64,000 nt of DNA from a virus (Duplodnaviria > Caudoviricetes), in the IMG/VR virus record IMGVR_UViG_3300042922_001473, one strand, 5' to 3'. Below, piece by piece: positions 8,841 through 50,156 of this stretch. The translations under genes and the position numbers were made by a program. Numbering within the stretch: position 1 is the first letter of the stretch; every line of letters starts with the position of its first letter. The notes under the pieces were generated by a model. That model had not been told where the DNA came from and did no database searches. It saw nothing but the letters and a program-made list of their open reading frames with translations.

Positions 8841-8978
8841 GCAAACAAAAATAACACTGATTAATCAGTGTTATTTTTTATATAAAAAGATGTAATTCAT
8901 AATATCCAAGCATCCTGAAAAGGTAGCAATTCAATTAATTCATACATCTTACACTTTATTTATTCTATATTTTTATTC

Positions 8979-9677
8979 TTAGCTTATAACATAACCGTAT
9001 TTCTTTAAATAAGTATAAAATTTCTTTTCAGGTTCTAACCCGACTGACATTTTAGCAAGTCCGTCAGCAATTTCATTAAAATCATCACCTGTATGAGCGT
9101 CAACTTTACAAAAATGTACTTTCATATTTTCATTGTTTTTTAAGAATTTTTGCATCCATTGGTAATATTCTTCTGAAAATGCATTATCTCTTTTCCAAAA
9201 TCCAGTACCATGATAACATGTCCCGACATAATCATGAAATAATACTACTTCTTTAAAGCCATTCTTTTTAGCATAAACAAGTGCTTTCATAGCACCCAAA
9301 AGTTCGCCACCAATTTGTTGCATTGATATTGCACCTTCATTATTACCAGAACCTTTATCATGACCTATTATTTTATTGTCTTTGACCAAGAGTAGTCCAA
9401 ATCCATAATTATGAACATTTTCATTAAAACTACCATCAATATAACAATGTAGGCAGTCTTTTGGAAATAAATTTTCTGATTTATACATTAATGGGTCTTT
9501 AGTACCCAGGTAATCCTCAGCTTCAGGTAAAGTAGCAAATCCAGAATATACTGAACCGCTAACACCTTTAACACACTTTTCAGTTTCAGACCATGTTTTC
9601 TTTATAACGTTTTCAATAGGATTTTTTGTTATTGGGTCAATCCCAAACTTAATTGCGTAATAATTTTTTTTAGCCAT
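8979..9677 (-). CDS. rnhA: ribonuclease H with N-terminal hybrid-binding (Cauli_VI-like) domain
   Basis: N-terminal YYAIK..TWSETEKCVKG..YSGF; RNase H motifs YIDGSF, GELLGA, HDY, KVDAHTGDDFNEIADGLA. Confidence 0.9.
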   Translation of the reverse strand: MAKKNYYAIKFGIDPITKNPIENVIKKTWSETEKCVKGVSGSVYSGFATLPEAEDYLGTKDPLMYKSENLFPKDCLHCYIDGSFNENVHNYGFGLLLVKDNKIIGHDKGSGNNEGAISMQQIGGELLGAMKALVYAKKNGFKEVVLFHDYVGTCYHGTGFWKRDNAFSEEYYQWMQKFLKNNENMKVHFCKVDAHTGDDFNEIADGLAKMSVGLEPEKKFYTYLKKYGYVIS

Positions 9678-9826
9678 ATTTTTTATCCTTTCTAATTTTT
9701 TATTTATGTAATATCAAAGGAAAGAGAAATTCTCTTTCCTGAAATATTTAATTTACCCAATTCGCTTTTGATAATTTTCTTCTCTTTTCTTTGCTAATTC
9801 TTTTCTTGCAAATGCCTCAGCTTTGT

Positions 9827-10186
9827 CTATTTCTTTTTTGTTACTATTCCTTTTTGAAAAAGAAGCAACGCTAATCCCTTATTATCCTCGTAAAAAGTTA
9901 ATGACCTCGCAAATTTTTTTAGCTCTAAATCATTAGGTAATGTCAGATTTGCATTTAGATTGGTATTTATATCATTTATTGCTCTACTTAATAAATCTTC
10001 TCCGCAAAAATATCTTAATTCTTCATTTTTAATACCTGTTGTAGCTATTGCCAATTCAAATGCTTCTTTTGTAATATTTACCACAGCATTTATAATTCTT
10101 TCAGAACCACAATCAGTATCACCAAATTTAGGATGTTCAATTTGATATAAATTTTCTGATATTACTTTTGTAAATTTTTCTATCAA
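9827..10186 (-). CDS. hypothetical protein
   Basis: 119-aa ORF, AAGGA RBS + TTG. Confidence 0.55.
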   Translation of the reverse strand: MIEKFTKVISENLYQIEHPKFGDTDCGSERIINAVVNITKEAFELAIATTGIKNEELRYFCGEDLLSRAINDINTNLNANLTLPNDLELKKFARSLTFYEDNKGLALLLFQKGIVTKKK

Positions 10187-10566
10187 ATCCTTATTTACGG
10201 GTATATGGATTTAGATGTGGCATTCCATAACTGAATTTTAGTTTAATGTAGTTTCATTAATATTTCTTCTTGCTCTTTTAAATTTTCAATTCTATTTTTT
10301 ATTATTCGTATCTGTTCTTCATCATCATTACCATAAGCTTGTAATAAATCATCTTCAAGACAATCTATTTCTGCTCTAATTTCATATATATCCATCATTT
10401 CTATATCCATCATTTTTCACTCCTCACCTAAATATTAATTAATACCACAATTTATACCTATTTCTTTTTATTTATTGATTTATGCCAATACTACACCTAA
10501 TTCCTCGTACCCTTATTTACTTCTGAATTTCTTTACATTTTCTCCTTCGAGTAATACAGTTATTTT

Positions 10567-11868
10567 CTAAACTCTTTTAAACTCAATAATATATTTGATT
10601 TTTACTTGACTTTCATTGTAAACAATATATTCGTTGTGTACTAACGTTCTACCTTTTTTACCCATTACTGAATTATATCCTCTTGGTGCATGAGTAAGTT
10701 GTGGTTGACCATCTTCATATTCTTTGATTTTGCCAGTTGCAACTTCACAAACAAACATGAAGTTTGTATCAAGTCCAGCATTGCTTGCTGTTCCAAAACC
10801 ATTCGCATAATTTCCTGATTTTGTTGAACAATCCGCAAAATATATGCCTGTCCCAAACAAACTACCTGTATGAACTGCAGAAGCAGGCTTTATTTTTAAT
10901 CCACTTTGCATTATAGAAAGCATGTTTTCATTTCTTGTTCCATGAAAAAGTGTTGAAGTTGTTACATTGTAAGGATTAAATTTATCATAACCAACCATAT
11001 CTTTAAATTCATAGATATCTTTAATATCGAACCCAAAATGGTGATTATGTCCTCTTGTAGTATTAACCCAATTTACTAAATCTTTATATGCTTTTGTTCT
11101 TGAGGAAAGTGCTATAAGTTTGATATTTAAAGAATTGTATTTATCTTGAATTGATTTTTCAAGACTATCATGTGCTTTAACTATAGAACTCATTACACCA
11201 AGTAAGTCTTTATTTCTGTTAAGCTTATTGTAATTATCAATTATGAAACTTTTGTAATCAATATTTCCTGTTCCAAAAACAACTGGAATAACTGAATAAA
11301 AATCATTTGTATAACTTTCTAAAATAGAGCCAGTTCTACCACTATCAAGAAGTGATTCGATTGTGTTAAGTATTTCAATACCTTCAGCAACCTGTGAGGT
11401 AGATAATTTTCCAAGTGGGGTGTCAATACTTTTTACAAGGTAATCTGTAGCAGAACTATATAGCTTTCCAATAAGTCTTAAAACTTTGTCTGTAATTTTA
11501 GACAAATCTTCTGCTTTGTTTTTGGTTGATACTTTTACAGCTTTTGCTGAAAATGAGTAGTTATCTGCTACATCAACTTTTCTGTATCCCTTATTTTCTT
11601 TTTCCTTCATAATTCCTCTATATTCATCTTCTGCTAAATACCTGCTGGTGTAATATCTTCCTTCTTTTCTTGGAGTTCTTCCACCAACCCTGCCATATTC
11701 AGTAAAAATCCTATACGGATATTGTCCTGTACCTGACTGTAGTTCAATAATGTAAAATTTGTTTGAATGTTCTGAAATTGAAGCCATATTTAATATTTCT
11801 TTTTGTAATACGCTAAAATTTTGAAAAAGTGGTTCATCTACAGAACCTATTCTAATTACATTTGCCAT
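10567..11868 (-). CDS. poly(ADP-ribose) polymerase-like protein (WGR + regulatory + catalytic domains)
   Basis: WGR-like NKFYIIEL..EYGRVG..KENKGY; regulatory PLGKLS..FYSVIP; catalytic FHGTR, GSLFGTGIYFADCSTKSGNY, HNEYIVY (H-Y-E triad). Confidence 0.9.
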   Translation of the reverse strand: MANVIRIGSVDEPLFQNFSVLQKEILNMASISEHSNKFYIIELQSGTGQYPYRIFTEYGRVGGRTPRKEGRYYTSRYLAEDEYRGIMKEKENKGYRKVDVADNYSFSAKAVKVSTKNKAEDLSKITDKVLRLIGKLYSSATDYLVKSIDTPLGKLSTSQVAEGIEILNTIESLLDSGRTGSILESYTNDFYSVIPVVFGTGNIDYKSFIIDNYNKLNRNKDLLGVMSSIVKAHDSLEKSIQDKYNSLNIKLIALSSRTKAYKDLVNWVNTTRGHNHHFGFDIKDIYEFKDMVGYDKFNPYNVTTSTLFHGTRNENMLSIMQSGLKIKPASAVHTGSLFGTGIYFADCSTKSGNYANGFGTASNAGLDTNFMFVCEVATGKIKEYEDGQPQLTHAPRGYNSVMGKKGRTLVHNEYIVYNESQVKIKYIIEFKRV

Positions 11869-12040: not shown

Positions 12041-13825
12041 TTATATAAAAACTTTTTCGTTTTTATAGATTATTTCATCAAGTTCGTCTGCTGTAAGAGA
12101 TTCTTTTTCTATTAATACATTAGCTATTTTTTCAAGAATGTGTTTATTCTTAGTTAATAAATCAACAGTTTCATTATAAAGTTCTAAAGAAAGTTTAGAA
12201 GCTTCATCTAATACAGATTTATTATCAACACTCATTTGGGTAAGATTTAACATCCCGAATTTGTCATTCATTCCATATGTGGATATCATTTGCTTTATAA
12301 TATTTGTTGCTTGCAATATATCATTTGAAGCTCCCGTAGTTATTAAGTCTTCATTTCCAAGTAATAATAACTCACCAACTCTACCTGCGTATCTAACCTT
12401 TACTTCGTTTTCTAATTCTGTCTTAGATAGTAGCCCCAATTTCTTTGGAGTTATAAAGGTAACACCACCAGCACCTGAAGTAGAAGGAATTATAGTTACT
12501 TTTTGTACTTCATTTTCCGTAATAAGTTTAGAACAAAGTGCATGTCCAGCCTCATGCCAAGAAATGAGTTTTATTTCTTCATCTTTTCTACTTCTATTTT
12601 TCTTTTTATCACCTTGCATAACAATTTTGTAATATGCGTCATCAATATCTTCTTGGTCAACTGCTTCTTTATTTTTTGTTACAGCAAGTATAGTCGCTTC
12701 ATTGAGCAATGATTCAAGTCCTGCTCCTGAGAATCCAATAGTAAGCTTTGAAAGTTGTTCAAAATTTATCTCTGGTGAAAGCTTTTTATTTTTTGCATGT
12801 ACTTTTAATATTTCTAATCTATCATTACTGTCTGGTAAATTAATAGCAATACGCTTATCAAATCTTCCTGGTCTTATTAAAGCTTCATCAAGGTTTTCAA
12901 TTCGGTTCGTGGCCGCAATAACTAAGACACCTTTACTTTCATCAAAACCGTCAAGTTCTTTTAACAGGGCATTTATAGTTTGGTCTTTTTCGGAGTTTTG
13001 TCCTTCTCCTCTTTTTGTTCCAACAGCGTCTATTTCGTCAATAAATATAATACATGGAGATTTTTTTCTTGCATTGTCGAATAAGCTTCTAACTCTTTTT
13101 GCACCCATACCTACAAACATTTCAACAAAATCAGAACCGCTTATGCTGAAAAAAGGAACTTTTGCCTCTCCTGCGATAGCTTTTGCTGTTAAAGTTTTAC
13201 CTGTTCCAGGAGGACCATAAAGAATTACGCCTTTTGGCATTTCAGCTCCCATATTAGTAAATTTTGTAGGGTTTTTAAGAAATTCCACAAGCTCAACCAT
13301 TTCAGCTTTTGCTTCATTATTACCTGCAATATTATCAAAAGTTACATTCGGTATCTTTTCTTGAGCTTCTTCCATGTTTTTTTGTGAACCCATGTTTTGA
13401 GAATATCTTTTAAACATATATAACATTAAAGCAACCATAACAACTGTTCTTAATGTATACCATATAAAATCTTCAACTTGATTAGCAGAAGAAGATATTT
13501 CCTCAACCTTTACATTTTTTTCAAGTAAACTTCTTTTAAATCCCTCACTTTTAGGATTGTCAGTAATGTAAATATTTTCATTCTTGTCAAAGAATGTTAT
13601 TTTCGGTGAACCTACATCAATTAAAACTTTTTCTACCGACTGAGAATTAACCATTTGCATAAATTCATTAAATGTTATTTCATTTATAGTATCTGTAGTA
13701 GCTTTTGATAAACTATTTCCTATAATCATAGAAATTAGTAATATTGTAATTATTACTACATACCAACCATTCTTTTTTAGCCATTTTAAAATTTTGTCAT
13801 AATTATCTTTCAATTTTTCCTCCAA
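12041..13825 (-). CDS. ftsH: ATP-dependent zinc metalloprotease FtsH
   Basis: Two N-terminal TMs, GPPGTGKT, IFIDEID, RPGRFD, HEAGH, GASNDI; GGAGG RBS suggests the real start is TTG at 13813. Confidence 0.95.
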   Translation of the reverse strand: MEEKLKDNYDKILKWLKKNGWYVVIITILLISMIIGNSLSKATTDTINEITFNEFMQMVNSQSVEKVLIDVGSPKITFFDKNENIYITDNPKSEGFKRSLLEKNVKVEEISSSANQVEDFIWYTLRTVVMVALMLYMFKRYSQNMGSQKNMEEAQEKIPNVTFDNIAGNNEAKAEMVELVEFLKNPTKFTNMGAEMPKGVILYGPPGTGKTLTAKAIAGEAKVPFFSISGSDFVEMFVGMGAKRVRSLFDNARKKSPCIIFIDEIDAVGTKRGEGQNSEKDQTINALLKELDGFDESKGVLVIAATNRIENLDEALIRPGRFDKRIAINLPDSNDRLEILKVHAKNKKLSPEINFEQLSKLTIGFSGAGLESLLNEATILAVTKNKEAVDQEDIDDAYYKIVMQGDKKKNRSRKDEEIKLISWHEAGHALCSKLITENEVQKVTIIPSTSGAGGVTFITPKKLGLLSKTELENEVKVRYAGRVGELLLLGNEDLITTGASNDILQATNIIKQMISTYGMNDKFGMLNLTQMSVDNKSVLDEASKLSLELYNETVDLLTKNKHILEKIANVLIEKESLTADELDEIIYKNEKVFI

Positions 13826-26354: not shown

Positions 26355-27284
26355 CTATAGTTGACCAATATATGCAAAAGGGTTAAAACGTTCAATCTCG
26401 ATAACATATTCACTTATTAAAGACATACATTCGTCTAAATTTCTATAACAAAATGGTGCTTCTGTTTTAATTGAATCATTCGAAATAGAGTTTGGTATAT
26501 ATATTCTATTTCTTAGTTCTTCGTAATCGAAAATTTCAGCATACTTCTTAGCTTCGCCTCTACTCATAACTCTCCCTGTACCATGACTGATTGAATTAAG
26601 TGCATTATCTATGTTCTCTGTAGCTTTAATTAAAATCATTTCACCATCCATGTTGGAGGGGATTACGCTAATATCATTTTTATTTAATTTTACCGAACCT
26701 TTTCGTATAATGACTCCTTCATTTGTTTCTTCAAAAGAGTTATGAACGGTATCTAAAATTAACTGTGATTTACCAAAAACTTTATCAATTAATTCCTTTA
26801 TAGCTATTCGGTTTTCTTTAGCCCATTCAATAACATTTGAATATTCTCTATTGAAAGCAATAGGGTTATCTATTAAACTGTTTATCTCTTTACCTTCAAG
26901 TCGTGAACCTGTATGTATGAGAAAATAAACTTCTGAAGTATTAGAAGAATATGCAGTTAAAAAATGATTGCCAGAACCCAAGTGACCTTTAGAATTTGTG
27001 TTGTTTTTTAATAATGAATAAACACTATCCCAGTCCTTAGTTGTAAACTCAGTTTTATTAATTTTTGTCTTTATTAAAAGCATTCCGCATCCTATGTCAG
27101 ACAAAGTATACTTTCTCCAATCTTCTTGTTTTGTTAAAACTGTTGTTCCTGTTGGAAGAGGACTTTTACCAGGGCAAGCATCAGGGAAAAATACAATCTT
27201 TTCTGCTCTTAAATCATGTGGAAGCCAACTATATAACAATCCTTCATTAATGGAAGATAAGTTTAAAATATTCATATATTTCAC
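26355..27284 (-). CDS. rtcB: RtcB-family RNA ligase (compact form)
   Basis: PDA, DIGCGM, LGSGNHF, HTGSR, HN, RKG, SHGTGR, EAP..Y motifs. Confidence 0.88.
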   Translation of the reverse strand: MKYMNILNLSSINEGLLYSWLPHDLRAEKIVFFPDACPGKSPLPTGTTVLTKQEDWRKYTLSDIGCGMLLIKTKINKTEFTTKDWDSVYSLLKNNTNSKGHLGSGNHFLTAYSSNTSEVYFLIHTGSRLEGKEINSLIDNPIAFNREYSNVIEWAKENRIAIKELIDKVFGKSQLILDTVHNSFEETNEGVIIRKGSVKLNKNDISVIPSNMDGEMILIKATENIDNALNSISHGTGRVMSRGEAKKYAEIFDYEELRNRIYIPNSISNDSIKTEAPFCYRNLDECMSLISEYVIEIERFNPFAYIGQL

Positions 27285-29827: not shown

Positions 29828-31081
29828 ATGCGATTATCTTTTAAATTTAAGCCACAGCTAAATAGTTTACAAGCTAACATTATTGAAGAATTGAGCTATC
29901 ATACTACAAATCTATACAACATAGCTAATTATGATAATTTAAACCTTGGTGTGAAATCATATTACAAAATGAATGAAATTTACACTTCTAATTGGCATAA
30001 AGAATTTCTTCATAGCCACAACTATCAGTATTGTTTAAAAGTATTAGACCAGAACTGGAAATGTTATTTCAAGTCAATTGCTGATTTTAAGAAAAACCCT
30101 TCAAAATACAAGGGTATACCTAAACCACCAAAGTATAAAAATTTAAATGATAGGAAAAATGAAATAATTTTTACATCTGCAGGAATAAGATTTAAAAATA
30201 ATACATTAATTCTATCACTTTCTAAAGCTATGCAATTAAAATATGGTGTAAATAGCCTTAATTTTGAAGTTTCTGACAAACTTCAAAGCCTATTTGATTG
30301 GAATAGTCTTCAACAAGCAAAGATTTGCTGGAATAGTTCTTTAAAAGAATGGTCAATAATTTTAGTATATCTAAAAGAAGAAGTAATTTTACCAAGTGAT
30401 TTCAGTAATATTTTGGCAATAGATTTAGGTCTTTCAAATCTTGCAACAATGACATTCTTAAACAATGAAGAAAGCTACATTATCAATGGGAAACCTCTTA
30501 AATCGGTAAATAGCCATATTAACAAGAAAATTGTACATTTGCAAAGAATTTCTATGCATATGGTTGGCAGTAAAAAACATAAAGACACTAAGGAAATAAC
30601 ACGTCTTAGAACTTATAGGGAAAACTATGTTAATAACTATATGCATAAAGCAAGCAAAATTGTTATTGAATTAGCACTAAAACATAAATGTGAAACAATA
30701 GTAATAGGCGATATCCATGGTATTAAACAAAACTTAAACTACAATAAGACATTTGTTCAAATACCAATACTTAAACTAAAAGAAATGATTAGCTATAAAG
30801 CAAAATTACAAGGTATAGAAGTAATACTTCAAAATGAAGCATATACTTCTGGTTGTAGTGCACTTGATTTGGAAGTTATTTCAAAATTACATTATAACAA
30901 AAAAAGAAGAATATGCAGAGGCATATTCCAAAGTAATAATAATTTTAAAATTAACTCAGATGTAAATGGAAGTCTAAATATTTTAAGGCTTCACACAAAA
31001 GACACATGTATTCCCAAGTTAATAGAATTATCAAGGGATAAGGGCTACGTGAATAGCCCAATAAAGCAAAGGGTGGCTTAG
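29828..31081 (+). CDS. tnpB: RNA-guided endonuclease TnpB
   Basis: P.PPKYK, RuvC-I AIDLG, IVIGD, EAYTS, RuvC-III NSDVNGSLNI. Confidence 0.92.
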   Translation: MRLSFKFKPQLNSLQANIIEELSYHTTNLYNIANYDNLNLGVKSYYKMNEIYTSNWHKEFLHSHNYQYCLKVLDQNWKCYFKSIADFKKNPSKYKGIPKPPKYKNLNDRKNEIIFTSAGIRFKNNTLILSLSKAMQLKYGVNSLNFEVSDKLQSLFDWNSLQQAKICWNSSLKEWSIILVYLKEEVILPSDFSNILAIDLGLSNLATMTFLNNEESYIINGKPLKSVNSHINKKIVHLQRISMHMVGSKKHKDTKEITRLRTYRENYVNNYMHKASKIVIELALKHKCETIVIGDIHGIKQNLNYNKTFVQIPILKLKEMISYKAKLQGIEVILQNEAYTSGCSALDLEVISKLHYNKKRRICRGIFQSNNNFKINSDVNGSLNILRLHTKDTCIPKLIELSRDKGYVNSPIKQRVA

Positions 31082-31178
31082 ATAATTAACCTAAGTAGAA
31101 ACTTAAATACTACAGCTTTATAGAAGCCCCCCACTTCTAAGCGTTAGTGTAAGTGGTGAGGGTATTCACTGAAGGAAA

Positions 31179-38383: not shown

Positions 38384-41300
38384 ATGGCAAAACAAAATGT
38401 AGCTTACAAAATGGTAGAATCAGAGGTGTTTAAAGGAGCTGATGAAATAAAAAATTCAATTAAACAAGGACTTAAATTAATTAATAGTAAAAGAACTATA
38501 AAAAATGAAGAAGAGCTTCCTTATCCTATGGATACAAGTTATGGAGAAAAGGATTGGAATATCACTTCAGCTTTAAGAGAAATTATTGCAAATGCTATAG
38601 ATACTGGTTCTGAGTATAAAATTGATTATGTTTCTGGATTTGCAGTAATTAGAGACAAAGGAGCAGGGTTAACTAAACAATCTTTTATTTTCGGGAAAAG
38701 TACAAAAAGAGAGTCTGATTCTAAAGTTGGACAATTTGGCGAAGGAACAAAAATGAGTTTTTTGACACTTCTTCGACTTGAAAGAATAGTTTGGGTTAAT
38801 ACTGTTGGCTTTACAACATTGGTAGATAAAGTTCCATCTGAAAAGTATGGTGCTGAATTAATGAAATTAAGATTTTTACCAAACGATAGAAAAGAAGGAA
38901 CGGATATTTTTATTGAATGTTCTGAACAAGAGCTGGAAGAAGCAAAGAGACTTTTCCTTGAACTAAGTCCTCTTGAAAAAATTGACAACAATATATTTAA
39001 ACCTGCAAACAGTATTTTTATAGTTGGTTTAAAAACAACAACATTGACTAACACTCTATTTAGCTATAACATAGAAGATAAAACTATGACAAACAGAGAC
39101 CGCAATATTGTTGATGTTGTAAAATTACAATCAAGTGTCATGAATATATTAAAAAAGGCAAAGAATCAAGCTTTTATAAAAGAATATTTAACTGCTTTTA
39201 AGGATAATTCAAATGCTTTTGAATATCAATTACCATTCATACCTGACGAATCAAAAAAAGATACATGGGTTAAAGTACTTAAAAAAGTATTACCAAAAGC
39301 TGTTTTATCATCAGATATGCAATCAGATTTATATGCAAGCATGATGGGATATACGGTTTTAAGAAATGTACCTTCCAATTTACACAGAGTATTTAAATAC
39401 TTAGGTGTTAGTGAAAGTAGCGTCTATGCAAGAAACTACAATGGAGAAGGTTTGAAAATTGATAAGAAAATTATATTTCCAATCTCTGAAGGTTATGTTG
39501 GTCAATGGACAAGAAAAGATGCAATAAAAGAATTTCTTGCAAACTCACTTGATGCAGGAGACAAAATAAGTGTTACATGTAGCGATGGGAAAGTAAGAAT
39601 ATCTGATAATGGAGTAGGTATTGCTAAAAAACACTTTGTATTCGGAGTTTCTGAAAAAAATGACACTGCAATTGGTAAATGGGGAGAGGGTATGAAAATT
39701 GCTTGTTTAGTTCTTGCAAGAACCCAAAGCCCAGTAAAAATTGAGACAGTAGGCTACACTTATGAAGCAAAATTAGAAAAAAATGACGACTTTGGAATGA
39801 AGCTATTGGTTGTTTATTATACTAAAAATTTAAGGACAAAAGGAACTTCCATTGTATTCAATGCCACTGAAAAGGAAATTGAAGAAGCCAAGGGAATGTT
39901 TATTCAATTTAAAGGGGTCAGAAACAAAAAAATTTCAACAGACATTATGGATGTTTATTTTGAAAATCCTGGTGTTGTTTATTCCAATGGACTTGAAACT
40001 ACAAAAATAAATGCACTCTTTAGTTATAACATTAAAAATAAAGAAATAGTTTCATCAAGAGACAGAAATGCAGTAGATACCTATAAATTGCAGGAATATA
40101 TTGAAAAATTCCTTTCTGCTTCAACTGATGAAACGATTATAGACAAATTCTTAAGTGGCTGGCAGAATGATAGGGGTTTAATTGAATATAGAGCACAATT
40201 TCAGCCTAAAAGCGAAGAAGTATGGATTAAAATTGCTAAAAAAACTTTTAATAAAGCATGTTTTGCTATAGATGGTTATGATAATGAAGACTTTATAGCT
40301 AAACAGGCAGGATATACTATTCTTAGAGAAGTTCCGTATTCTGTTAGAAGAGTATTAGAACGAGCAGGTATAAAAAGAGCAGATATTATAGCAAAGAAAT
40401 ATAAAAACAAAGGCATACTATTAGGGGATAGAATTGTATACCCTATAACAAAAGAGTATGTAAGCAATATGAGTATAGATGACGCTATAAAAGAACTTAT
40501 ATCGAATTGCCTTGACACAGAATCTAAAACTTCAATTTCTTGTGGTGACGGTATAATTTCAATAAGTGATAAAGGTGAAGGGATTTCGAAGAAAAACTTA
40601 TTGTTTTCAGAATCTAATAAAACTGAAAGTCAAATTGGTCAATTTTGTGAGGGTTTAAAATTTGCTTCATTGGTACTTGCAAGAAATAATAGAGAATTTA
40701 AGATTTCAACAAAGGGTTATGACTATGTTGCTACAATAGAACGTGACACACAGTTTAAAGCGGATGTTCTTGTAATAACTCTTTCAGCTAACAGAAAAAG
40801 AGTTGGAACTGATATAACATTTAAAGGAACTCAGCAAGAACTTAATAGAGCAAAAAATAATTTTTTAGCATTTAATGAAAGCTTCAAGCGTGTAGACTGT
40901 GGAATATATTCACCAGGGGGAAATATTTTTGTTAATGGAGTATTTATACAAAAAATTAACTCAATCTACAGTTATGATATAATAGGAGCAAAAGATATTG
41001 TTTCGAGAGAGAGAAAAACTATAGACTTTGAAAAAGCGAAAATAAGTATTTCTTCATTGGTATCAATATCGGATAATAAGAAATTTATTGAGCACTTTAT
41101 TACAAACAAACAATATGATAAAATAGAACATCAATTATCGGTTAATCCGCTAAATAAAGCTGTTTGGAAAGAAGTAATTGGAACAGTTTATGCAAAACAC
41201 TGTTTTGCAACTGGTAGCGATTATGATGGAGTAGCAATGGACAAAGGTTATAAATTAATACTTCAGACTTCCATAACAATGCAAGCATTGCTTTCAAGAT

Positions 41301-41749
41301 TTGGGGTAATGGCTTCAAATCAAGTTGTTACTCTAAAGGGCGATGAAAAACAAATAAGAAAGAGATTTGATAAGAAGAAATTATCAGATAAAGGCAAGAA
41401 AAGATATGACAAGTCAATAGAGTTATTTACCGAACTATATGGAGCAAGACTTGCAAAAAAGATTGAACTTGTTGAAACCTTTAATGATGGTGTAGAAACC
41501 GATTCTACATGGGGCTTATATAATTCAACAACGGACACAATTTATGTATTAGCTGAGATTGTAGATAAAACAGATAAGTATGATTTTGATGAATATATGG
41601 GAGTTCTTATCCATGAACAAATTCACAGAAAATCAGGTGCTCATGATAGAACAAGAGAATTTGAATTTGCTTTATCAATGGAACTTGGAAGAATTGCTTC
41701 TTTATACTTTAAGTCTGTTTCAAAATCAAATAAATCTCTAATAGCTTAA
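38384..41749 (+). CDS. triple GHKL (HATPase_c) ATPase with C-terminal HExxH metallopeptidase-like motif
   Basis: Three ~320-aa repeats, each with ExxxNxxD, DxGxG, GxxxxGxK and GT; terminal HEQIH..AHD..EFE. Confidence 0.85.
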   Translation: MAKQNVAYKMVESEVFKGADEIKNSIKQGLKLINSKRTIKNEEELPYPMDTSYGEKDWNITSALREIIANAIDTGSEYKIDYVSGFAVIRDKGAGLTKQSFIFGKSTKRESDSKVGQFGEGTKMSFLTLLRLERIVWVNTVGFTTLVDKVPSEKYGAELMKLRFLPNDRKEGTDIFIECSEQELEEAKRLFLELSPLEKIDNNIFKPANSIFIVGLKTTTLTNTLFSYNIEDKTMTNRDRNIVDVVKLQSSVMNILKKAKNQAFIKEYLTAFKDNSNAFEYQLPFIPDESKKDTWVKVLKKVLPKAVLSSDMQSDLYASMMGYTVLRNVPSNLHRVFKYLGVSESSVYARNYNGEGLKIDKKIIFPISEGYVGQWTRKDAIKEFLANSLDAGDKISVTCSDGKVRISDNGVGIAKKHFVFGVSEKNDTAIGKWGEGMKIACLVLARTQSPVKIETVGYTYEAKLEKNDDFGMKLLVVYYTKNLRTKGTSIVFNATEKEIEEAKGMFIQFKGVRNKKISTDIMDVYFENPGVVYSNGLETTKINALFSYNIKNKEIVSSRDRNAVDTYKLQEYIEKFLSASTDETIIDKFLSGWQNDRGLIEYRAQFQPKSEEVWIKIAKKTFNKACFAIDGYDNEDFIAKQAGYTILREVPYSVRRVLERAGIKRADIIAKKYKNKGILLGDRIVYPITKEYVSNMSIDDAIKELISNCLDTESKTSISCGDGIISISDKGEGISKKNLLFSESNKTESQIGQFCEGLKFASLVLARNNREFKISTKGYDYVATIERDTQFKADVLVITLSANRKRVGTDITFKGTQQELNRAKNNFLAFNESFKRVDCGIYSPGGNIFVNGVFIQKINSIYSYDIIGAKDIVSRERKTIDFEKAKISISSLVSISDNKKFIEHFITNKQYDKIEHQLSVNPLNKAVWKEVIGTVYAKHCFATGSDYDGVAMDKGYKLILQTSITMQALLSRFGVMASNQVVTLKGDEKQIRKRFDKKKLSDKGKKRYDKSIELFTELYGARLAKKIELVETFNDGVETDSTWGLYNSTTDTIYVLAEIVDKTDKYDFDEYMGVLIHEQIHRKSGAHDRTREFEFALSMELGRIASLYFKSVSKSNKSLIA

Positions 41750-42116
41750 ATACTTTGTAATTACAAAGATATAAGGTGGTAAAGAAATGAAAAAAAAGTT
41801 TTACTTTCGCTTATAATCCAAAGATTGGGTGCGTTAGTCCAAGCGGAATGAAGAAAAAAACGATTAATGCAATTTCCAAAGCGGAAGCAGAGAAAATAAT
41901 AAAAGAATATTTAGTTAAGGTTAATGGGACTTTATGTTCTAAGTATTTTTAAGATTAAGAATAATAAAATGAATCCTTATATTTTTTTGAGGATTCATTT
42001 TTATTTTAAGAATCTATTGTTAAGAAATGCAAAATTTTTTGAATTCACAAAATTAAATTATAACGTATTTTAAAATGAATTGAGAGATTTTAAATTGAGT
42101 GTTTGTAAAATATTCA

Positions 42117-42145
42117 TTGACTATAGACAATAAGTGCTGTACAAT
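42117..42145 (+). promoter_or_regulatory. sigma-A promoter with palindrome variant TTGACTATAGACAA
   Basis: TTGACT-N17-TACAAT. Confidence 0.72.
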
Positions 42146-42181
42146 GAAATTATAAGAAATTAAAAAAGGAGACTAAGCAAA

Positions 42182-42787
42182 ATGTTTATAAAATACCAGC
42201 ACTTTATTACAGATACATTGAATAAAATTTTAAATCCAAGCTATAATTCATTTACTGATTATGTACAAGTAGTTTTAAATTCAATATTACTAATTATTTC
42301 ATTTATAGGAATTTTAGCAACTATAGCAGTCATTATTATAATCCCATATATTTTTTATTTAAAGTATATAAAAAAAATAAATGAAAATTTACAAAAAACA
42401 ATTGAAAATTTGCAAAGAATAAATAGAGAAACTGATAAGCTACATAGAATAGATAAAAAATTGAAAGAATTTGATAACAATACAAATAAAAATATAGATG
42501 AAAAGATAAAAAACGTAGATAGAGAGCTACTGAAAAATAAAATTAGAAATCGTTTAGAACAGTATAAAAAATTAATATCACGACAAGAAAAATTAAAAGC
42601 TAAAAAGATAAAATATATTCTTATATTAATTTTGATGATGATTATAGTTTATATTCCAATTATACTACCATTATTTATAATTATAATAGACTTTATAGGA
42701 TTAAATAATATTTTAGCTTTTTTCCTTCCAATATTTATAACAATATTAGTATTGTTACTTGAATATGTAGCTTGGAAAATTACTTAA
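42182..42787 (+). CDS. membrane protein (paralogue of 37033, longer coiled coil)
   Basis: Shared N-terminus and KYI...IVYIP.ILP.F..IIDF.GL. Confidence 0.75.
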   Translation: MFIKYQHFITDTLNKILNPSYNSFTDYVQVVLNSILLIISFIGILATIAVIIIIPYIFYLKYIKKINENLQKTIENLQRINRETDKLHRIDKKLKEFDNNTNKNIDEKIKNVDRELLKNKIRNRLEQYKKLISRQEKLKAKKIKYILILILMMIIVYIPIILPLFIIIIDFIGLNNILAFFLPIFITILVLLLEYVAWKIT

Positions 42788-43328
42788 TTTTGTGCTTTAA
42801 AAAGAACCATTTAGTGGTTCTTTTTAAGAATTTGTATCAAAAGCATCAAGTATAATCTTACCATAATATCCAGTTATTATTCATCTTTAATTTTATCCAA
42901 AGTTAAGTGCAAAATGAGTTCGTAAAATCAATTTTAAGCGTTTAAAATATTTTCTTTGACTAAATGGTTGGCAAAGAGGAATAATTAATTTAAAAGCTAA
43001 TTGGTGCTTTCAAGAAGCATTATAAGAATTATGTCGAAGTTTTGTTCGAACAGAGGTTAGCTGATAGTAAAAATGGTGTATAAAGTTACAGCAAAATATA
43101 GTTTATAAATAAACAACATTAAATATCATGGTCTAAGAATATTTTGTTGTAACTAAATTAAATTCTTGAAGTTCAAAATATCTCAAACAAATAAATAAAC
43201 TAAATAATTAATAAGATAAAATCTTATAATAAGGGACTAATAAAATATAATAATAAAAATGTATCCAAATGAATAAACATCAAAGTGTAAATTCACATTT
43301 TAATTCAAAAAAGGCTGTAAGTTGTGAA

Positions 43329-43625
43329 TTTAAGTAAAACTTGCAACAAGTAGGATTATGTAAAATATTGAAAATTCCTATATTTTCAACAATATATATA
43401 AATATGTTGTCAAAATAACTTTATTTTTAATAAAGCAAATGTTGCAACAAGTATGTAAATTAAAGTAAAACTTGCAACATCTATGTTAATTTAAGCAATT
43501 GTTGCAAAATTTCTATTTACAAAGAAAGCGACAAAATCAACATTAGTAAGTAAAAATAAAATGTTTCTATGTTTTAAAAACAGATTTTTTTAATAAAACT
43601 ACACATATTGCAAGTTTTACTTAAA
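43329..43625. repeat. iteron-like repeats with core AAG-N6-TTGCAA
   Basis: 30-bp tandem units at 43431, 43461 and 43491, a further copy at 43329 and an exact 18-bp inverted copy at 43608-43625. Confidence 0.7.
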
Positions 43626-44243
43626 TCATTTTGTCAACATTACTTTAATCGACACATAAGTATTGGTATTACAAGAGCGTAGCCCCTTCCGAAAATCGTA
43701 AGATAATGTCACAAAATTAACATTTTGCGACAAACATAAATTCGGTTTTTATAATTTTCTTTCATCCCCTACTGTCGGACATGATTATTGTCGTCAATAA
43801 TTTCTTAAAGCTCATTTATTATTGTTTTTATGTAACCTGTAAAAAAATGTAATCATAAATGCCAAAAACAATCATACACCAATTATTATTCCATTATATT
43901 CTTTAGATTTTTCCAAAAAAATCTTTCATTATTTTCCCCCCTTACTTATACTATTTATAGTTTTTTTTATGTCATTAATACTTTTTTAATATTTACATTC
44001 TAACATTCAATCAAATAAACCTAAAAAAACATTAACATGTATTTATTATCCAATTATTTAATCTCTATAAACATTATCTGGTTTTATTAGTTGTCTATAG
44101 TCACCAATGCCCTATATTTATATCCTCATGCCACTAAAATAGATTGTAATTAAATAAACACTATATCTTAACTATTTCATCGAAGTGCAAAATAAAATGC
44201 TTTAAACCGCATTTTGTGACCTTGTTTTTTTGTTTATAAAATT

Positions 44244-44693
44244 TTGTTATTAAAATTCTCTTATTCGAATAGGATAGATAAGAAATATTACGAAGGTATC
44301 ATATTGATAATTAAAAAGGAGCTTATAATGTTTGTTAGATATGAGTTATATTGTGAAAATGAAAAGCAAGATGTTGGATTGTTAATGGGAGTTAATGAGT
44401 TAGATTTAGATGATGAACAAAAGGAAATTCTATTAAACGATTTTAATGAAAATCTTATAGTTCCTGAATTTTATATGCATTCACGACCAAGAAAAAATGT
44501 ATTAGCATTTTTTACTAATGAGGGGCTTTCATTTTTTGAAGAATCTATTAATAAGATTATTGAAAAATTTGATAATCATGGATTATTTCAAATAGCAAAA
44601 ATAACAATTTCTGAACATAATCAAAAGATTATATATCAAGATAATTTTCAAGTACTTATTGAAAATGCAAAAGATATAAATATTACAATATAA
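44244..44693 (+). CDS. hypothetical protein
   Basis: AAGGAG ahead of the internal Met (MFVRY). Confidence 0.65.
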   Translation: MLLKFSYSNRIDKKYYEGIILIIKKELIMFVRYELYCENEKQDVGLLMGVNELDLDDEQKEILLNDFNENLIVPEFYMHSRPRKNVLAFFTNEGLSFFEESINKIIEKFDNHGLFQIAKITISEHNQKIIYQDNFQVLIENAKDINITI

Positions 44694-44759
44694 ATAAAAA
44701 ACACATCTTTATTAAGATGTGTTTTTTGTATTATCTACATTCAATATTAAAGGATACCT

Positions 44760-45467
44760 TTATTTGTAAAAATGTTCGTGTAACCCACCAGCTATATCAC
44801 ATTCAGGATTATCTGTTGGTGTTAAAATAAATGATGGCAAGCCCCCTGCACAACCGTCAATTGCAGTAAGTATTGAAAACGCTACACCATTTAACCTTTC
44901 TTTTTGGTCTAAATTATCAATATTGTTCCAATAATTGACCATATTTTTTACATGGTCTAAAAAATCTTCTCTTAGTTCTTTTATGTTTTTTTGTTTTACT
45001 TCTTCCAAGGTTGCCTGATTTGACTTATAACTAAGAATACTATCCCGAACTGTTTGAGCAAATTCTTTAAAATCTTCATCAGTTATAGTTATTTTTACTA
45101 TTTCTTCTGTAGTTATTGAGTTTATATCAGCTTTCCCTGTAATTCTCCATGGATAAATTCTTCCAGGTGCTATTGCAAATTGAGCTTCTGAATATATTTC
45201 TTTATAAATTTCTTTACCGCTTATTTCTTTTTCTTGTTTAGCTAAATCTGCCATTTTGCCACTTAAAATATCTTCAGATAATTCTAAAAACTTATCCATA
45301 TCTATATAGACATTGATATTTTTTTTAATATTAGTTCCTGTTTGTGATTTTTTATATTCTATAAAATTGATTCGCACCTTTTCAATATTGAAAGCCGAAT
45401 TCAACACTTCCATAAATACATTTTTCCCATGAATTAAAATAATTTGATTAGGATTCTTACAAATCAT
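44760..45467 (-). CDS. hypothetical protein
   Basis: AAGGAG RBS, 235 aa. Confidence 0.75.
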   Translation of the reverse strand: MICKNPNQIILIHGKNVFMEVLNSAFNIEKVRINFIEYKKSQTGTNIKKNINVYIDMDKFLELSEDILSGKMADLAKQEKEISGKEIYKEIYSEAQFAIAPGRIYPWRITGKADINSITTEEIVKITITDEDFKEFAQTVRDSILSYKSNQATLEEVKQKNIKELREDFLDHVKNMVNYWNNIDNLDQKERLNGVAFSILTAIDGCAGGLPSFILTPTDNPECDIAGGLHEHFYK

Positions 45468-45626
45468 ATTATATCTCCTTTTATATATACTTTTGTTCTA
45501 TATCTCTATTTAATATTCAGACTTCAATACTGTTTATAATTAAACAGTATTGAAGTCTCTATCGTTATAACAAGTATCAACACCTTTTAGCTAATAAGTA
45601 TATTTTACCATTAGATTCTTAAAAAA

Positions 45627-45911
45627 TCAAATACATCCATATGAAGCTTCCACTGATTTACGCAGTTTTATTTCTAAATCATATGGCAAATTAACATTTT
45701 TCGGACTTGGAACTGTTCCATTATCCTTTATTAACTTTGCTGTTTTGAAATCTTCCGAAATTTGATATACTGACGAATGATGACTGGTATTTCTAATCCC
45801 TTCTTTAGAATTTGTTACATATGGCAAACCATTGCTTGGTGAAACTGCATCAAATTTACGATTATCTGCAAAACCAATCTTATATAAACCACCATTAAAA
45901 TAATATTTCAT
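45627..45911 (-). CDS. hypothetical protein
   Basis: 94-aa ORF with purine-rich RBS. Confidence 0.6.
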   Translation of the reverse strand: MKYYFNGGLYKIGFADNRKFDAVSPSNGLPYVTNSKEGIRNTSHHSSVYQISEDFKTAKLIKDNGTVPSPKNVNLPYDLEIKLRKSVEASYGCI

Positions 45912-46125
45912 AACACTCTTCCCTTCAATATTTGATTTTAAAAATCACCTTAATTAATTTTTATATGTAATTATACTCTTTTAAAATCTAAAAAATTACG
46001 GGATTATTTTAGATTGATTATTTCTTTTACGTTGCATATAATTATTAATAATACAAAATATCAGGTATTTTATAAATTAAAAAATAAACTTAATCAGGTG
46101 CAAATTTTACAAAGGAGGACAACTA

Positions 46126-46776
46126 ATGATATTTTATCATGGTACAAACAGTATAGCTCTTAACCAAATATTGAAAGATGGATATATAAGACCTCTTTCT
46201 AAAACCAATCAACAAAACAAATGTTGTATTACTACTACCATGCAAGATGATGCAGTTTACTTAACATCGGAAAAAATGATTGCAGGATTTTATACGCCTA
46301 AAGGAAAAGTGAAAGTTGACAATACAGATGTTTATTCCTGTATATTGGAAATTGATTTACCATTTGAAAAATGTAATTTTAGACCTGATGAAGATTATAT
46401 GAATGATATAATTAGCTATAATAACTATGATATTTATGATAAGTATATAAAGAGACATGAATATGCTAATTATGTAGAACCATATATAAGCTTATTTAAA
46501 AATATAACTAAAAAAGACATTGACTTTAGATATTTGTTTTCAAAAAATAAGCATTTGGGTTTAAAAATGTTATCCGAATCAGATTCATCACTATCTTTGG
46601 AACTCGGTAGTGTAGCATACATAGGTGAAATAGATGTATGTAATATTAAATCAGTTACAATATCAGACATATTTGAAGCAACAATCTATAAGATAACTCA
46701 GGAAGAAATAAGTAATGCTATTAAAAAAGTTGATTTTATAGTTGATGATTTTATTGATGATATTCGTATTAATTAA
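46126..46776 (+). CDS. ADP-ribosyltransferase-fold protein
   Basis: FYHGT......IL.DG..P, AVYLT....A.FY, ILEID. Confidence 0.6.
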   Translation: MIFYHGTNSIALNQILKDGYIRPLSKTNQQNKCCITTTMQDDAVYLTSEKMIAGFYTPKGKVKVDNTDVYSCILEIDLPFEKCNFRPDEDYMNDIISYNNYDIYDKYIKRHEYANYVEPYISLFKNITKKDIDFRYLFSKNKHLGLKMLSESDSSLSLELGSVAYIGEIDVCNIKSVTISDIFEATIYKITQEEISNAIKKVDFIVDDFIDDIRIN

Positions 46777-47157
46777 TAGTAAAAAAGCACTTATTATATT
46801 AGTGCTTTTTTATTGTGTTTTAATATAATGTGTCGATTTATTTCTAATATTTCATCATGTTAGCAAATGTGTCGAAATTATATTTTTAGTTCAATATGTT
46901 GCATCAATTTTTTGGAGTTAGTATAAATAGATGAACATTAAAATATCTTTCGTTTAAAAGCATTTAGAAGGCTCGATTTTCCAATAATCCATGAAGTTTC
47001 CTACTCACAACCCGTACCAAGGATTTTCCTGGTTAAAACCCGAACTAATAAACATTATTTACCAAACTTCTTAAAGTTTTAAAAAATTGATTTTAAAAAA
47101 CAGCATTGTAACAATGCTGTTTAGTATTTAAAATGTCTACTTTACAATTTTGATATT

Positions 47158-47394
47158 TTAGCAACTTAGAATTTCAAATATAGAGATACGTGAAACTCTA
47201 TTGCAGTATTCGGTTATACAATCATTTTCGGTATAGTTATCATTATTATTAAGCTTATCACACAATGTTTCTAATATTGACTTATTATTATCAGATATTA
47301 CTATATGTTTATCTTCTTGTCTAACTAAATGCCACTTATAAGATTTTCTTAAACAATATTTGTTATTTACTGTTTTCCTTTTTATATCATTCAT
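47158..47394 (-). CDS. hypothetical protein
   Basis: 78-aa ORF after 47453 gene. Confidence 0.5.
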   Translation of the reverse strand: MNDIKRKTVNNKYCLRKSYKWHLVRQEDKHIVISDNNKSILETLCDKLNNNDNYTENDCITEYCNRVSRISIFEILSC

Positions 47395-47452
47395 TTTCTT
47401 TTTCCTTTACTATAAAACTTTTCTTCAAGTTTAAAACAATCTGCACCCTTCT

Positions 47453-47881
47453 TTAAAAATTACGCCTATCCTCTTTTAATTCTTTGTATGCAGAATCAAG
47501 ACGATTCTCTTTGCAATATTTAGAGTAATTATTTATGACTTCTTCCAACATATTATCAAAACGGGCTTCGATTTTATCAAAGTCTTCTTCTGTAGTTATA
47601 TCCAATATATATACTGCTACAGTATTTCCGTTTAAAATTTTATTACCGTTTCTATCCTCAACATGTATACTAAAATAACCTTTATCATATTGAATCTTTT
47701 CTAAATTTCGATACCAATATAATAACTTGATAATAGGCACAAACGTATCTTTATTATTAAATGCAAGCGTTCCTCTACCTTGTGAGACATCAATGAAAAA
47801 CCCAAGTTCTTCAAGTTTTTTATCAAACTTATCCCATAATTTAAAGCCTAAATCTTCATACTTATCAATTTTCTTTTTCAT
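47453..47881 (-). CDS. hypothetical protein (paralogue of 49533)
   Basis: YEDLG.KLW.K.D.KLEE.GF; DRNGNK.LNG; DKIEARFD.MLEE shared. Confidence 0.75.
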   Translation of the reverse strand: MKKKIDKYEDLGFKLWDKFDKKLEELGFFIDVSQGRGTLAFNNKDTFVPIIKLLYWYRNLEKIQYDKGYFSIHVEDRNGNKILNGNTVAVYILDITTEEDFDKIEARFDNMLEEVINNYSKYCKENRLDSAYKELKEDRRNF

Positions 47882-48125
47882 AAATGCTCCTCATAATTTT
47901 TATTAATATTACTTCCTCTTTTAAGAGTTAGTTAATATTCCTTTTTTGTTTTTTATATTATAGCAACAAGACCTTATTAATATTACAACATCATTTTTCC
48001 CAAAAAGCAACTTTTATATAATGAATGAATTAAAGGAGACTAAAGAAGTATAGTACATGTTAATTGTTAGGAAACAGATTAATTATGATAATATATTAAG
48101 TAAAAGAAAAGGAAGGTAAAAAAGA

Positions 48126-48561
48126 ATGATAACAGTAAAAATAATAGATAAAACAAATTTAAACAATCCAAGATGTGAAATAATAAGTTCTTCAGGTGTG
48201 GATTTGCAAGCAAATGTTGAGATGCCAGTAACATTGAAACCGAGAGGAAGAGCATTGATTTCAACAGGATTATTCATGGAAATACCAGTTGGTTATGAAG
48301 GAATGGTTATAGCAAGAAGTGGTCTTGCTATTAAAGTTCATGCAATAGACACTATAAACCCTGATTACAGAGCTGAAATTAAAGTAATGGTTATAAATAT
48401 TGGAGACAAAGATTTTACTATTAATAATGGTGATATTATTGCCCAGATGAAATTTTTACAATTACTAATGGAAATGAAATCGCCAAAAAGGTACTTTTTT
48501 TAAAGCAGTTAGGGTTTTAGAAAAAACTGAACGTGGCGAAGGTATATTTGGACATATTTGA
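48126..48561 (+). pseudogene. dut: degraded dUTPase duplicate
   Basis: Copy of 48769 with a deletion in motif 3 and a frameshift separating the ERGEG.FGH motif 5. Confidence 0.85.
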
Positions 48562-48768
48562 GTGTAAGAAAAACAGCTAATATTCCTTAGTTGTTTTTTA
48601 TTATAGCTATCTCATATTAACATTCATTTTTCTGAAGAAAATATCTATAATATGATAGATAATATATAAAAAAGGAGACTAAAGAAGTATAGTTCATATT
48701 GGTTATTGGAAACACGTATTAAATATGATAATATATTCTAAGTCAAAAGAAAAGGAAGGTAAAGAAGT

Positions 48769-49203
48769 ATGATAAATGTAAAAATAATAAATAAAACAAA
48801 TTTTAAAAACCCAGGATATGAAACAGTAGGTTCTGCAGGTGTAGATTTACAGGCAAATATTGACACACCAATTGTTTTAAAACCTCTTGAAAGAGCCTTA
48901 GTTCCAACTGGATTATTTATGGAAATCCCCGTTGGTTATGAAGGTCAGGTTAGAGCAAGAAGTGGTCTTGCTATTAAACATGGGATTAGCTTAGTTAATG
49001 GAATTGGCACAATCGACTCAGATTACAGAGGTGAAATTAAAGTAATTTTGATTAATCTTGGAAGTGAAGATTTTACTATTAAAAATGGAGAAAGAATTGC
49101 ACAAATGGTATTTATGCAATATGAGAGAGCAACTTTTGAAACAGTTCAACTTTTACAAGAAACTGAACGTGGCGAAGGTGGTTTCGGGCATACTGGAGTT
49201 TAA
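48769..49203 (+). CDS. dut: trimeric dUTPase
   Basis: [34 protein letters not shown]. Confidence 0.96.
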
Positions 49204-49249
49204 GAAATAATAAAAGAGCTAATTATTAGCTCTTTTTATATGTAAAATA

Positions 49250-49438
49250 TTAATTTAGCTGACCATTTTTATAATATTCAACTATGTTTTCAATGTCCGA
49301 CAACTCACACATTGGAGTATTATCAATACACTTCATTAGCATATTTTTAAATTCACTATCCGTAAGAGTAGTTCCTACTTCGTTTAACAAATTCGCAATA
49401 TTCTTTTTTACATCGTCTGCATTTATTGGTCTAATCAT
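49250..49438 (-). CDS. small phage-type protein
   Basis: GAGGT RBS; MIRPINAD...IDNTP. Confidence 0.6.
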   Translation of the reverse strand: MIRPINADDVKKNIANLLNEVGTTLTDSEFKNMLMKCIDNTPMCELSDIENIVEYYKNGQLN

Positions 49439-49532
49439 TTTAGCTACCTCTCTAAATATTGATTCAATACTACAGCTAATCTAATATTTTTTTCTATAAA
49501 ACCAGCGATTATTAAATCATATATAATCATTT

Positions 49533-49976
49533 TTAAAATTCACGTCTATCTTGTAGTAATTTTTTATTAATAGAGTCAAGTTTATTATTTTCATTATATT
49601 TTAAATAATTTTTCAGTGCCTCTTCTAACATTTTATCAAATCGTGCTTCAATTTTATCAAGTTCTTTTTCATTGATAATATTTAATTTATATATGGCGAT
49701 AATTCTTCCATTTAATAGCTTATTACCATTTCTATCAAAAATATTTATGCTAAAATATTTTTTATTATCCTTTAATTTTTCCATATCCCAATACCAATAA
49801 TTTAATACAAAAATCGGTTTATATGTATCATGCTCGCTAAATGCAGTTGTTTTTCTTCCATGGTAGTCATCATTATTTAATAGTATACTAAATCCATGCT
49901 CTTCCAGTTTATTATCATGCTTTTCCCAAAGTTTTAATCCTAAATCTTCATATCTATCAAAATTTCTATTTTTTAT
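49533..49976 (-). CDS. paralogue of 47453 with apparent ATA start
   Basis: Frame is open 64 codons upstream of the annotated Met and aligns with the 47453 N-terminus; GGGGG RBS 9 nt before ATA at 49976. Confidence 0.6.
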   Translation of the reverse strand: MKNRNFDRYEDLGLKLWEKHDNKLEEHGFSILLNNDDYHGRKTTAFSEHDTYKPIFVLNYWYWDMEKLKDNKKYFSINIFDRNGNKLLNGRIIAIYKLNIINEKELDKIEARFDKMLEEALKNYLKYNENNKLDSINKKLLQDRREF

Positions 49977-50156
49977 AACTAATATCCCCCTTCTGTTTTT
50001 AAATTTATAATAGTACAGAACCTACCAATGCGTATAAAAAGGAAAATATATATATGCCTAAAGCTAAAAATACTAATATTTCATTTATTATTCCTTTTTC
50101 TCTATATCTTACTTCTCTTCTCATATTTATGCCTCTCACCTTATGAATTATATAAT

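Follow-up and report, generated by a model that had tools for sequence, protein, structure and literature searches.

The 64,000-nt stretch of the IMG/VR virus record IMGVR_UViG_3300042922_001473 (Duplodnaviria; Caudoviricetes) that was analysed as a whole, hereafter called the window, has a G+C content of 26% and sits on a contig of 534,699 bp. One of its genes, P0001, encodes a large protein in which three tandem GHKL ATPase modules are followed by a single C-terminal tail carrying an HExxH motif (Table 1). This composition had been proposed in an earlier reading made from the letters alone (the sequence-only reading), and it is supported by the profile and structural comparisons presented below. 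Recoding with genetic code 4 was considered and rejected, since it left the open reading frame (ORF) unchanged: the ORF is identical under genetic codes 11 and 4, and thus no recoding is required.

The three modules, of ~320 aa each, begin at residues ~45, ~363 and ~684 (nt 38515, 39470 and 40432), where the sequence-only reading had located them. When compared with each other by BLASTP (28-34% identity over ~310 residues), they gave E values of 8e-56 for modules 1 and 2, 4e-57 for modules 2 and 3, and 4e-36 for modules 1 and 3, a similarity that at the sequence level is far above chance. Each module has one copy of motif I (REIIANAID, KEFLANSLD and KELISNCLD, in this order), of motif II (DKGAG, DNGVG and DKGEG) and of the G-loop (GQFGEGTK, GKWGEGMK and GQFCEGLK), together with a GT. 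All four motifs of the GHKL family (ExxxN, DxGxG, G-rich loop and GT) are therefore present in all three modules. In addition, the modules share a further segment, which reads SYNI..RDR in modules 1 and 2 and SYDI..RER in module 3. These motifs, as well as the HEQIH of the tail, had been read correctly and in their right places in the first inspection. The Pfam family HATPase_c_3 matched P0001 in three stretches (E 3.6e-16; 59.9 bits versus a cut-off of 25). Among 62 full-length triple relatives, the catalytic Glu, the Mg-binding Asn, the adenine-binding Asp, the Gly loops, the GT and the R-D-R were kept at 95-100% in each module. None of the modules looks degenerate, and the three putative ATP sites are strongly conserved.

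We have modelled module 3 together with the tail (residues 671-1121, model residue 1 being protein residue 671) with AlphaFold2 on the basis of 51 aligned relatives, obtaining a predicted local distance difference test (pLDDT) of 93 and a predicted template modelling score (pTM) of 0.79. An exhaustive structural comparison of this model returned GHKL matches spanning model residues 1 to ~280, namely MORC2 (Z 11.1; root-mean-square deviation (rmsd) 9.9 with 245 aligned residues), TRAP1 / GRP94 (Z 11.1), ParE (Z 10.6), T6 topoisomerase II (Z 10.2), MutL (Z 9.4) and sacsin SR1 (Z 6.4). In each module, a Bergerat ATP-binding domain is joined to a transducer-like part, which is rich in beta structure and bears the S-Y...R-D-R segment, and to a helical part. 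The best structural matches of the ATP-binding and transducer parts are found among MORC, MutL and type II topoisomerases (Z 9.4-11.1), and an ATP-type N-terminal dimer interface is predicted by the dimer model described below. The sequence similarity of these proteins to the P0001 family is, however, marginal (E ~0.005-0.02), and their partner domains, i.e., CW, S5-coiled-coil, endonuclease and TOPRIM, are absent from P0001. A phmmer search of P0001 against the PDB sequences found Mlh1 alone, with an E value of 0.25.

The tail, in which HEQIH occupies residues 1077-1081, has a Wss1/WLM-like zincin fold with the HExxH on the active-site helix. VIA-align aligned 109 of its 128 residues with yeast Wss1 5xbn (Z 8.1; rmsd 3.3; model residues 324-442, i.e., protein residues ~994-1112), and SPRTN 6mdx and the Wss1 of S. 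pombe (both with Z 7.0) as well as minigluzincins (Z 6.5-6.9) were also matched. When the middle and tail regions were searched as a sequence profile, Wss1p (E 2.6e-6), the WLM domain of S. pombe (1.7e-3) and projannalysin (6e-3) were matched. Residues H1077, E1078, H1081 and D1088 are kept in 96-100% of 211 tails, a handful of proteins having lost them, and these residues were invariant in a separate alignment. A lack of conservation of the HExxH had been named beforehand as one of the findings that would refute the original proposal, and the motif is kept. Position 1087 aligns with the third His of Wss1 and is a His in P0001, yet it is a His in only 28% of the triple forms. Since this position varies in the family while its neighbour D1088 is invariant, D1088 is likely, to judge from the alignment, to be the third metal ligand in place of the His. 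The tail of P0001 has a minimal zincin fold and an HExxH helix in common with Wss1/SPRTN, but in P0001 GHKL modules take the place of SUMO-, ubiquitin- or Cdc48-binding motifs as fusion partners of the protease. The biology of Wss1 also involves an ATPase partner, Cdc48.

Table 1. Features of P0001 and its immediate surroundings in the window
Feature	Position (nt)	Strand	Description	Basis
Whole ORF P0001	38384..41749	+	1121 aa, stop included; single reading frame	
Shine-Dalgarno sequence	38370..38375	+	GGAGGA, 8 nt 5' of the ATG	direct reading
N-terminal extension	38384..38509	+	residues 1-42; one predicted helix; variable among relatives	
Module 1	38510..39433	+	residues ~43-350; GHKL ATP-binding, transducer-like beta and helical domain	
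Module 1 key residues			E66, N70, D91, G93, G95, G116-K123, G172-T173, R238-D239-R240	
Module 2	39434..40393	+	residues 351-670	
Module 2 key residues			E383, N387, D408, G410, G412, G431-K438, G487-T488, R559-D560-R561	
Module 3	40394..41353	+	residues 671-990	
Module 3 key residues			E704, N708, D729, G731, G733, G752-K759, G808-T809, R875-E876-R877	
Wss1/WLM-like zincin tail	41363..41746	+	residues ~994-1121	structural alignment and profile
Metal-site motif	41612..41647	+	HEQIHRKSGAHD (H1077, E1078, H1081, H1087, D1088)	
Terminator-like hairpin and T-run	41966..42001	+	3' of the ATPase gene	consensus scan only
Small membrane protein genes	37033-37518 and 42182-42787	+	paralogues, 38% identity, E 3e-16	
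Broken gene	38126-37647	-	160 codons in three pieces, frames 0/1/0; own GGAGGG ribosome-binding site	

The sequence-only reading had named a match to an already characterised family with this architecture as a refutation, and P0001 is a direct member of a family that is catalogued, as phrog_6077 and PF25856, yet functionally uncharacterised. The match to phrog_6077, which is annotated as of unknown function, has an E value of 3.7e-105 and covers three stretches of P0001. PF25856 (MPN635_N) appears in the precomputed annotation of P0001 (E <=1e-5) and on its Atlas neighbours, and it was not among the three families obtained by a direct Pfam hmmscan of P0001 at E <=1. Typical members of this family have one module (~300-460 aa) versus three in P0001, and in one subfamily the module is followed by the Wss1/WLM-like protease. 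An exhaustive search with a hidden Markov model (HMM) of module 3 plus the tail retrieved 5669 cluster representatives with an E value <=1e-3, 575 of them reaching E <=1e-30; word-indexed searches with the same region, either as single sequence or as profile, returned 2-3 proteins and were uninformative, and thus the HMM search was used. The bulk of the representatives are ~430-460 aa long and cover the whole profile, i.e., one module plus one tail, while ~12 representatives of ~770-840 aa have two modules plus the tail and ~9 have three modules. Among 219 proteins that were fetched, 129 have one module plus the tail, 17 have two and 63 have three, so that homologues with 1, 2 or 3 repeats, for which a search had been suggested, all exist. 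A cluster look-up of ten relatives provided almost no names.

The family was detected by tblastn in 91 phage records and it is also present on 35 IMG/VR viral contigs, every one of them single-module. It is large, uncharacterised and mostly phage-borne, and it includes as well 'ATP-binding proteins' of Bacillota and Mycoplasma. GHKL ATPases and Wss1/SPRTN proteases are each well studied; their fusion, and the series of one, two and three modules, appear undescribed, since no description was found in the literature searched. The CDS0173 of Moorella phage MTATph1 (446 aa) is an example of a phage member with a tail, its HExxH reading HETLH. Other members, such as ORF34 of Pseudomonas phage Ab18, ORF14 of Edwardsiella phage KF-1 and gp56 of Vibrio phage 1.122.A (the latter named 'histidine kinase-like ATPase'), have no tail, and therefore the ATPase module should have a function of its own. 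These three tail-less homologues (L007:4980-6071, L008:5088-6011 and L009:5001-6170, respectively) have in common a C-terminal (N/H)(R/K)KHMR. In BFVD, the viral fold relatives that ranked next after uncharacterised proteins were RIIA proteins of phages ('protector from prophage-induced early lysis'; Foldseek E ~1e-9). The likeness in fold to RIIA is partial, with template modelling (TM) scores of 0.33-0.36, and it suggests, at the level of predicted structures, that the GHKL proteins of phages form a larger group.

To follow the origin of the triple form, a maximum-likelihood tree of 91 modules was built. The first modules of the triples cluster with the first modules of the doubles (support of 93 in the Shimodaira-Hasegawa-like approximate likelihood ratio test, SH-aLRT), whereas the second and third modules of the triples are sister groups (SH-aLRT 89) that fall among the second modules of the doubles. 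Most of the single-module proteins fall outside those multi-module groups. The simplest reading of this tree would be that one module became two and that the second module was then duplicated, the positions having been orthologous since. According to the module tree the triplication is internal to the phage family, and therefore it is independent of that of sacsin.

Triple forms occur only on giant elements of Bacillota, with sizes of 0.1-0.7 Mb. Besides the contig of the window, they are found on a complete circular Aneurinibacillus 'plasmid' of 721,710 bp, on an Alkaliphilus record of 435,827 bp from a plasmid collection and on a metagenomic contig of 483,535 bp, the other carriers having 0.1-0.26 Mb. 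The Aneurinibacillus plasmid record CP116888.1 has four matching places, and in one region of it (L003:4726-10877) the orthologous triple-ATPase gene is apparently split by a group II intron, with a 142-aa N-terminal piece (4726-5154), ltrA (5856-7739) and a 958-aa remainder (8001-10877). A Brevibacillus contig (L005) and the 483-kb metagenomic contig (L045) share synteny around the triple gene, in the order DndB, YfbR-like HD, an ORF of ~170 aa, triple ATPase, DUF2314, DNA methylase, Glu_synthase and DFP, and thus they are related giant elements.

The sequence-only reading had also recommended a search for conserved neighbours. Such a search over 43 loci revealed no partner common to all of them; what recurred was synteny at the level of lineages and the presence of helicases. 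The neighbourhoods of the triple form contain mostly small unknown ORFs with no conserved partner. The one-module phage genes, for their part, are surrounded by early and replication genes. In four loci the one-module gene adjoins that of a UvrD-like helicase with a topoisomerase-type zinc ribbon, and in four more such a helicase is nearby; an SNF2 helicase adjoins it in two loci, and ligase, exonuclease, SSB and dUTPase genes are found near one-module phage genes.

The quaternary structure of module 3 plus the tail was predicted with two copies of the chain in the presence of ATP and Mg. The complex prediction reached 0.71, versus 0.00 for the best of three controls, a mark that was attained by 20 of 30 proteins solved as one-chain pairs and by 1 of 23 proteins solved as single chains. 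Contact agreement between the runs was at least 91%, and the pLDDT of the partner was at least 86. The interface is symmetric and comprises (in model numbering) the N-terminal strand 5-24, the lid 66-73, the segments 118-125 and 204-213, the latter including the RDR, and the tail helices 398-445, including the HExxH helix. The predicted dimer resembles the clamps with two gates that Hsp90, MutL and topoisomerase II form, although its pass may partly reflect the likeness to solved GHKL dimers.

The interpretation that we favour, although we hold it tentatively and with slightly less than even confidence, is that P0001 is an ATP-gated dimeric clamp that hands a bound, probably DNA-associated protein to its own protease, with a role in replication exerted on DNA-bound proteins. 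Upon binding of ATP, two modules would join through their N-terminal domains to form a closed clamp, as in Hsp90, MutL, MORC and type II topoisomerases. The dimer predicted for module 3 plus the tail brings both protease domains together at the opposite end of the clamp, and thus a trapped substrate would lie beside the HExxH sites and be cleaved. The further two modules would supply additional ATP-gated units for binding or gating. DNA-bound proteins are put forward as substrates because of the kinship of the tail with Wss1/SPRTN and because of the helicase neighbours; like Wss1 and SPRTN, the protein might act on them during the replication of the phage or element, clearing roadblocks, covalent adducts or host DNA-binding proteins. 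Should the clamp indeed feed the protease, it would amount to a compact ATP-gated protease of phages, of an undescribed type, which could be relevant to the removal of replication roadblocks or to the attack on host DNA-bound proteins.

Several observations weigh against this proposal of a clamp that feeds a protease with DNA-bound proteins. The link to DNA is drawn from fold relatives and from neighbours in a minority of the loci, the triple-form genes themselves being surrounded mostly by small unknown genes. No member of the family has a known activity, substrate or phenotype, and MPN635 of M. pneumoniae is mentioned in the searchable literature as non-essential only (PMC9825166). Many members from proteobacterial phages do not have the protease tail. 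The Pfam WLM model gave 13.9 bits on the tail, below its cut-off of 26, and the third His of Wss1 gives way in most members to the adjoining Asp. The modules are well folded in the full-length monomer model (pLDDT 85.8), but its pTM is 0.47, and with such a pTM no arrangement of the three modules can be claimed. Finally, MORC2, TRAP1 and GRP94 tie at Z 11.1, and thus structure cannot separate DNA clamps from chaperones.

According to a second explanation, P0001 would be a chaperone-protease: its Hsp90/sacsin-like modules would remodel clients from the virion, the replication factory or the host, the tail would trim or degrade them, and DNA would have no part in the process. The nearest solved ATPase domains by sequence profile are indeed the N-domains of Hsp83 and endoplasmin (E 8e-5 to 2e-3), and Foldseek ranked full-length Hsp90s on top, but with TM scores of 0.25-0.36 and a large rmsd, while in the structural comparison MORC2, ParE and MutL score equal or nearly so. 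Sacsin is itself a chaperone that carries three Hsp90-like repeats (PMC3710099), and P_loop_sacsin was the NCBIfam family, and the named family in general, most often matched by members of the P0001 family (14 of 51 at E <=1e-3, best E 6e-7). The closest relatives of the tail, i.e., Wss1 and SPRTN, are nevertheless DNA-dependent proteases, and the recurrent phage neighbours are helicases. Taking all this into account, we consider a chaperone-protease without any connection to DNA unlikely.

The term sacsin-like, which was used in the sequence-only reading, is only partly appropriate. There is a weak affinity of the ATPase domain for sacsin, as indicated by the P_loop_sacsin matches, and the layout is an analogy. 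Both proteins have three tandem GHKL-type modules per chain, each followed by a non-ATPase region, but the UBL, J (DnaJ) and HEPN domains of sacsin were not found in P0001 by the Pfam and NCBIfam scans, P0001 itself scored 36.3 bits with P_loop_sacsin (NF047352), below the curated cut-off of 50, and in structure SR1 was matched less well (Z 6.4) than MORC2 or the Hsp90-type proteins (Z 11.1). The sacsin repeats are also far longer than the ~320-aa modules of P0001.

A similar pattern was found for the antiphage system Tiamat, a GHL ATPase-nuclease with a DUF3684 core. P0001 matched nothing in PADLOC at E <=1, and among its relatives the Tiamat (TmtA) models were those most matched (~10 of 51 members, best E 2.3e-6). 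When the middle and tail regions of family members were scanned alone, the sacsin and TmtA matches vanished, and thus both affinities are confined to the ATPase domain. Tiamat and sacsin have been placed in one GHL clade (preprint 10.64898/2026.09.30.754977). The ATPase domain of the P0001 family is of the same broad clade as that of Tiamat, and the same preprint reports an inactive Wss1-like fold downstream of the Tiamat ATPase. The protease-like fold of Tiamat has no HExxH, whereas the motif is intact and conserved in the P0001 family, and its TPR-like repeats, Fold B and PD-(D/E)xK nuclease are absent from P0001.

P0001 could also be a conflict effector, either a counter-defence protease directed against host immunity or a means of defence or exclusion by which the element protects itself against other phages, akin to Tiamat/MORC-type immunity. 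The TmtA matches and the inactive Wss1-like fold that follows the ATPase of Tiamat (preprint 10.64898/2026.09.30.754977) point in this direction, as do the annotation of the RIIA fold relatives as protectors from prophage-induced early lysis and the location of the triple forms on giant elements in which methylases, DndB, GmrSD_N, Cas3 and HNH genes abound. However, the similarity to TmtA is limited to the ATPase domain, neither a nuclease nor any other Tiamat effector is present, no conserved partner gene was found, and most members of the family come from phage genomes of lytic type, where they are surrounded by early and replication genes. A possible role in defence had been suggested from the sequence, and it is not supported: P0001 has no PADLOC match and its family is mainly phage-borne. 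A function as conflict effector is regarded as unlikely.

According to a broader proposal, for which our confidence is low, the family would be a catalytically live viral counterpart of the core of Tiamat, NO VEIN and sacsin, in which a Wss1-like fold comes after a GHL ATPase. It would act as an ATP-gated chambered protease of a new kind that closes round DNA-bound proteins, and its series of one, two and three modules would be an independent and tractable model for the origin and working of sacsin-type proteins with several ATPases. The series of fully conserved modules offers a simple bacterial and phage system to ask why sacsin-like proteins hold several Hsp90-type modules, and the intact HExxH can serve as a reference for the Wss1-like fold that is reported as inactive in the antiphage Tiamat and the plant NO VEIN.

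P0001 is flanked by two small membrane protein genes and is divergent from a broken gene (Table 1), and the sequence-only reading had suggested that they might all form one system. The membrane proteins are paralogous, as it had noticed, and their promoters are similar: each gene lies behind a TTGACTAT(T/A)G(T/A)CAA -35 palindrome, a 17-nt spacer and a TATAAT/TACAAT box. The common TTGACTAT-type promoter and the paralogy would speak for a joint function of the ATPase-protease with both membrane proteins. Nevertheless, the two membrane proteins and five other neighbours had no tblastn match at five homologue loci, i.e., the Moorella phage (L001) and L003-L006, where the search covered 8 kb on each side of the homologue, and the terminator-like hairpin separates the ATPase gene from the downstream membrane gene. 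The upstream gene had been described as a dead gene with an ART fold. It is broken indeed, the first break lying at an A7 run, but its three pieces matched no Pfam family, including ART, and have no paralogue within the window. A single system made up of P0001, the two membrane proteins and the divergent gene is thus highly improbable.

The remaining genes of the window include several of phage type, namely a polymerase-like/PARP-like gene, RNase H, RtcB, HNH-AP2 endonucleases, a TnpB-type transposase and methylases, and a megablast of positions 30000-50000 against phages gave no match. The window also encodes a homologue of the FtsH-like AAA+ metalloproteases (12041-13825, - strand), which shares 38-45% identity with phage and bacterial proteins annotated as ftsH and matches phrog_30773 (E 3.7e-142), being a second ATPase-protease on the element. 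Two HNH endonucleases with an AP2-type DNA-binding domain are encoded at 36285-36809 and 31179-32186 (both on the + strand; phrog_374 and phrog_99). HNH-AP2 endonucleases are typical homing endonucleases of large phages. The transposase-family gene (29828-31081, + strand; phrog_506) is read as TnpB-like, and the RtcB-like ligase (phrog_1075) is encoded at 26355-27284 on the - strand. Finally, a protein with a Phd/YefM-type antitoxin domain (Pfam E 1.1e-7) is encoded at 34324-34785 on the + strand.

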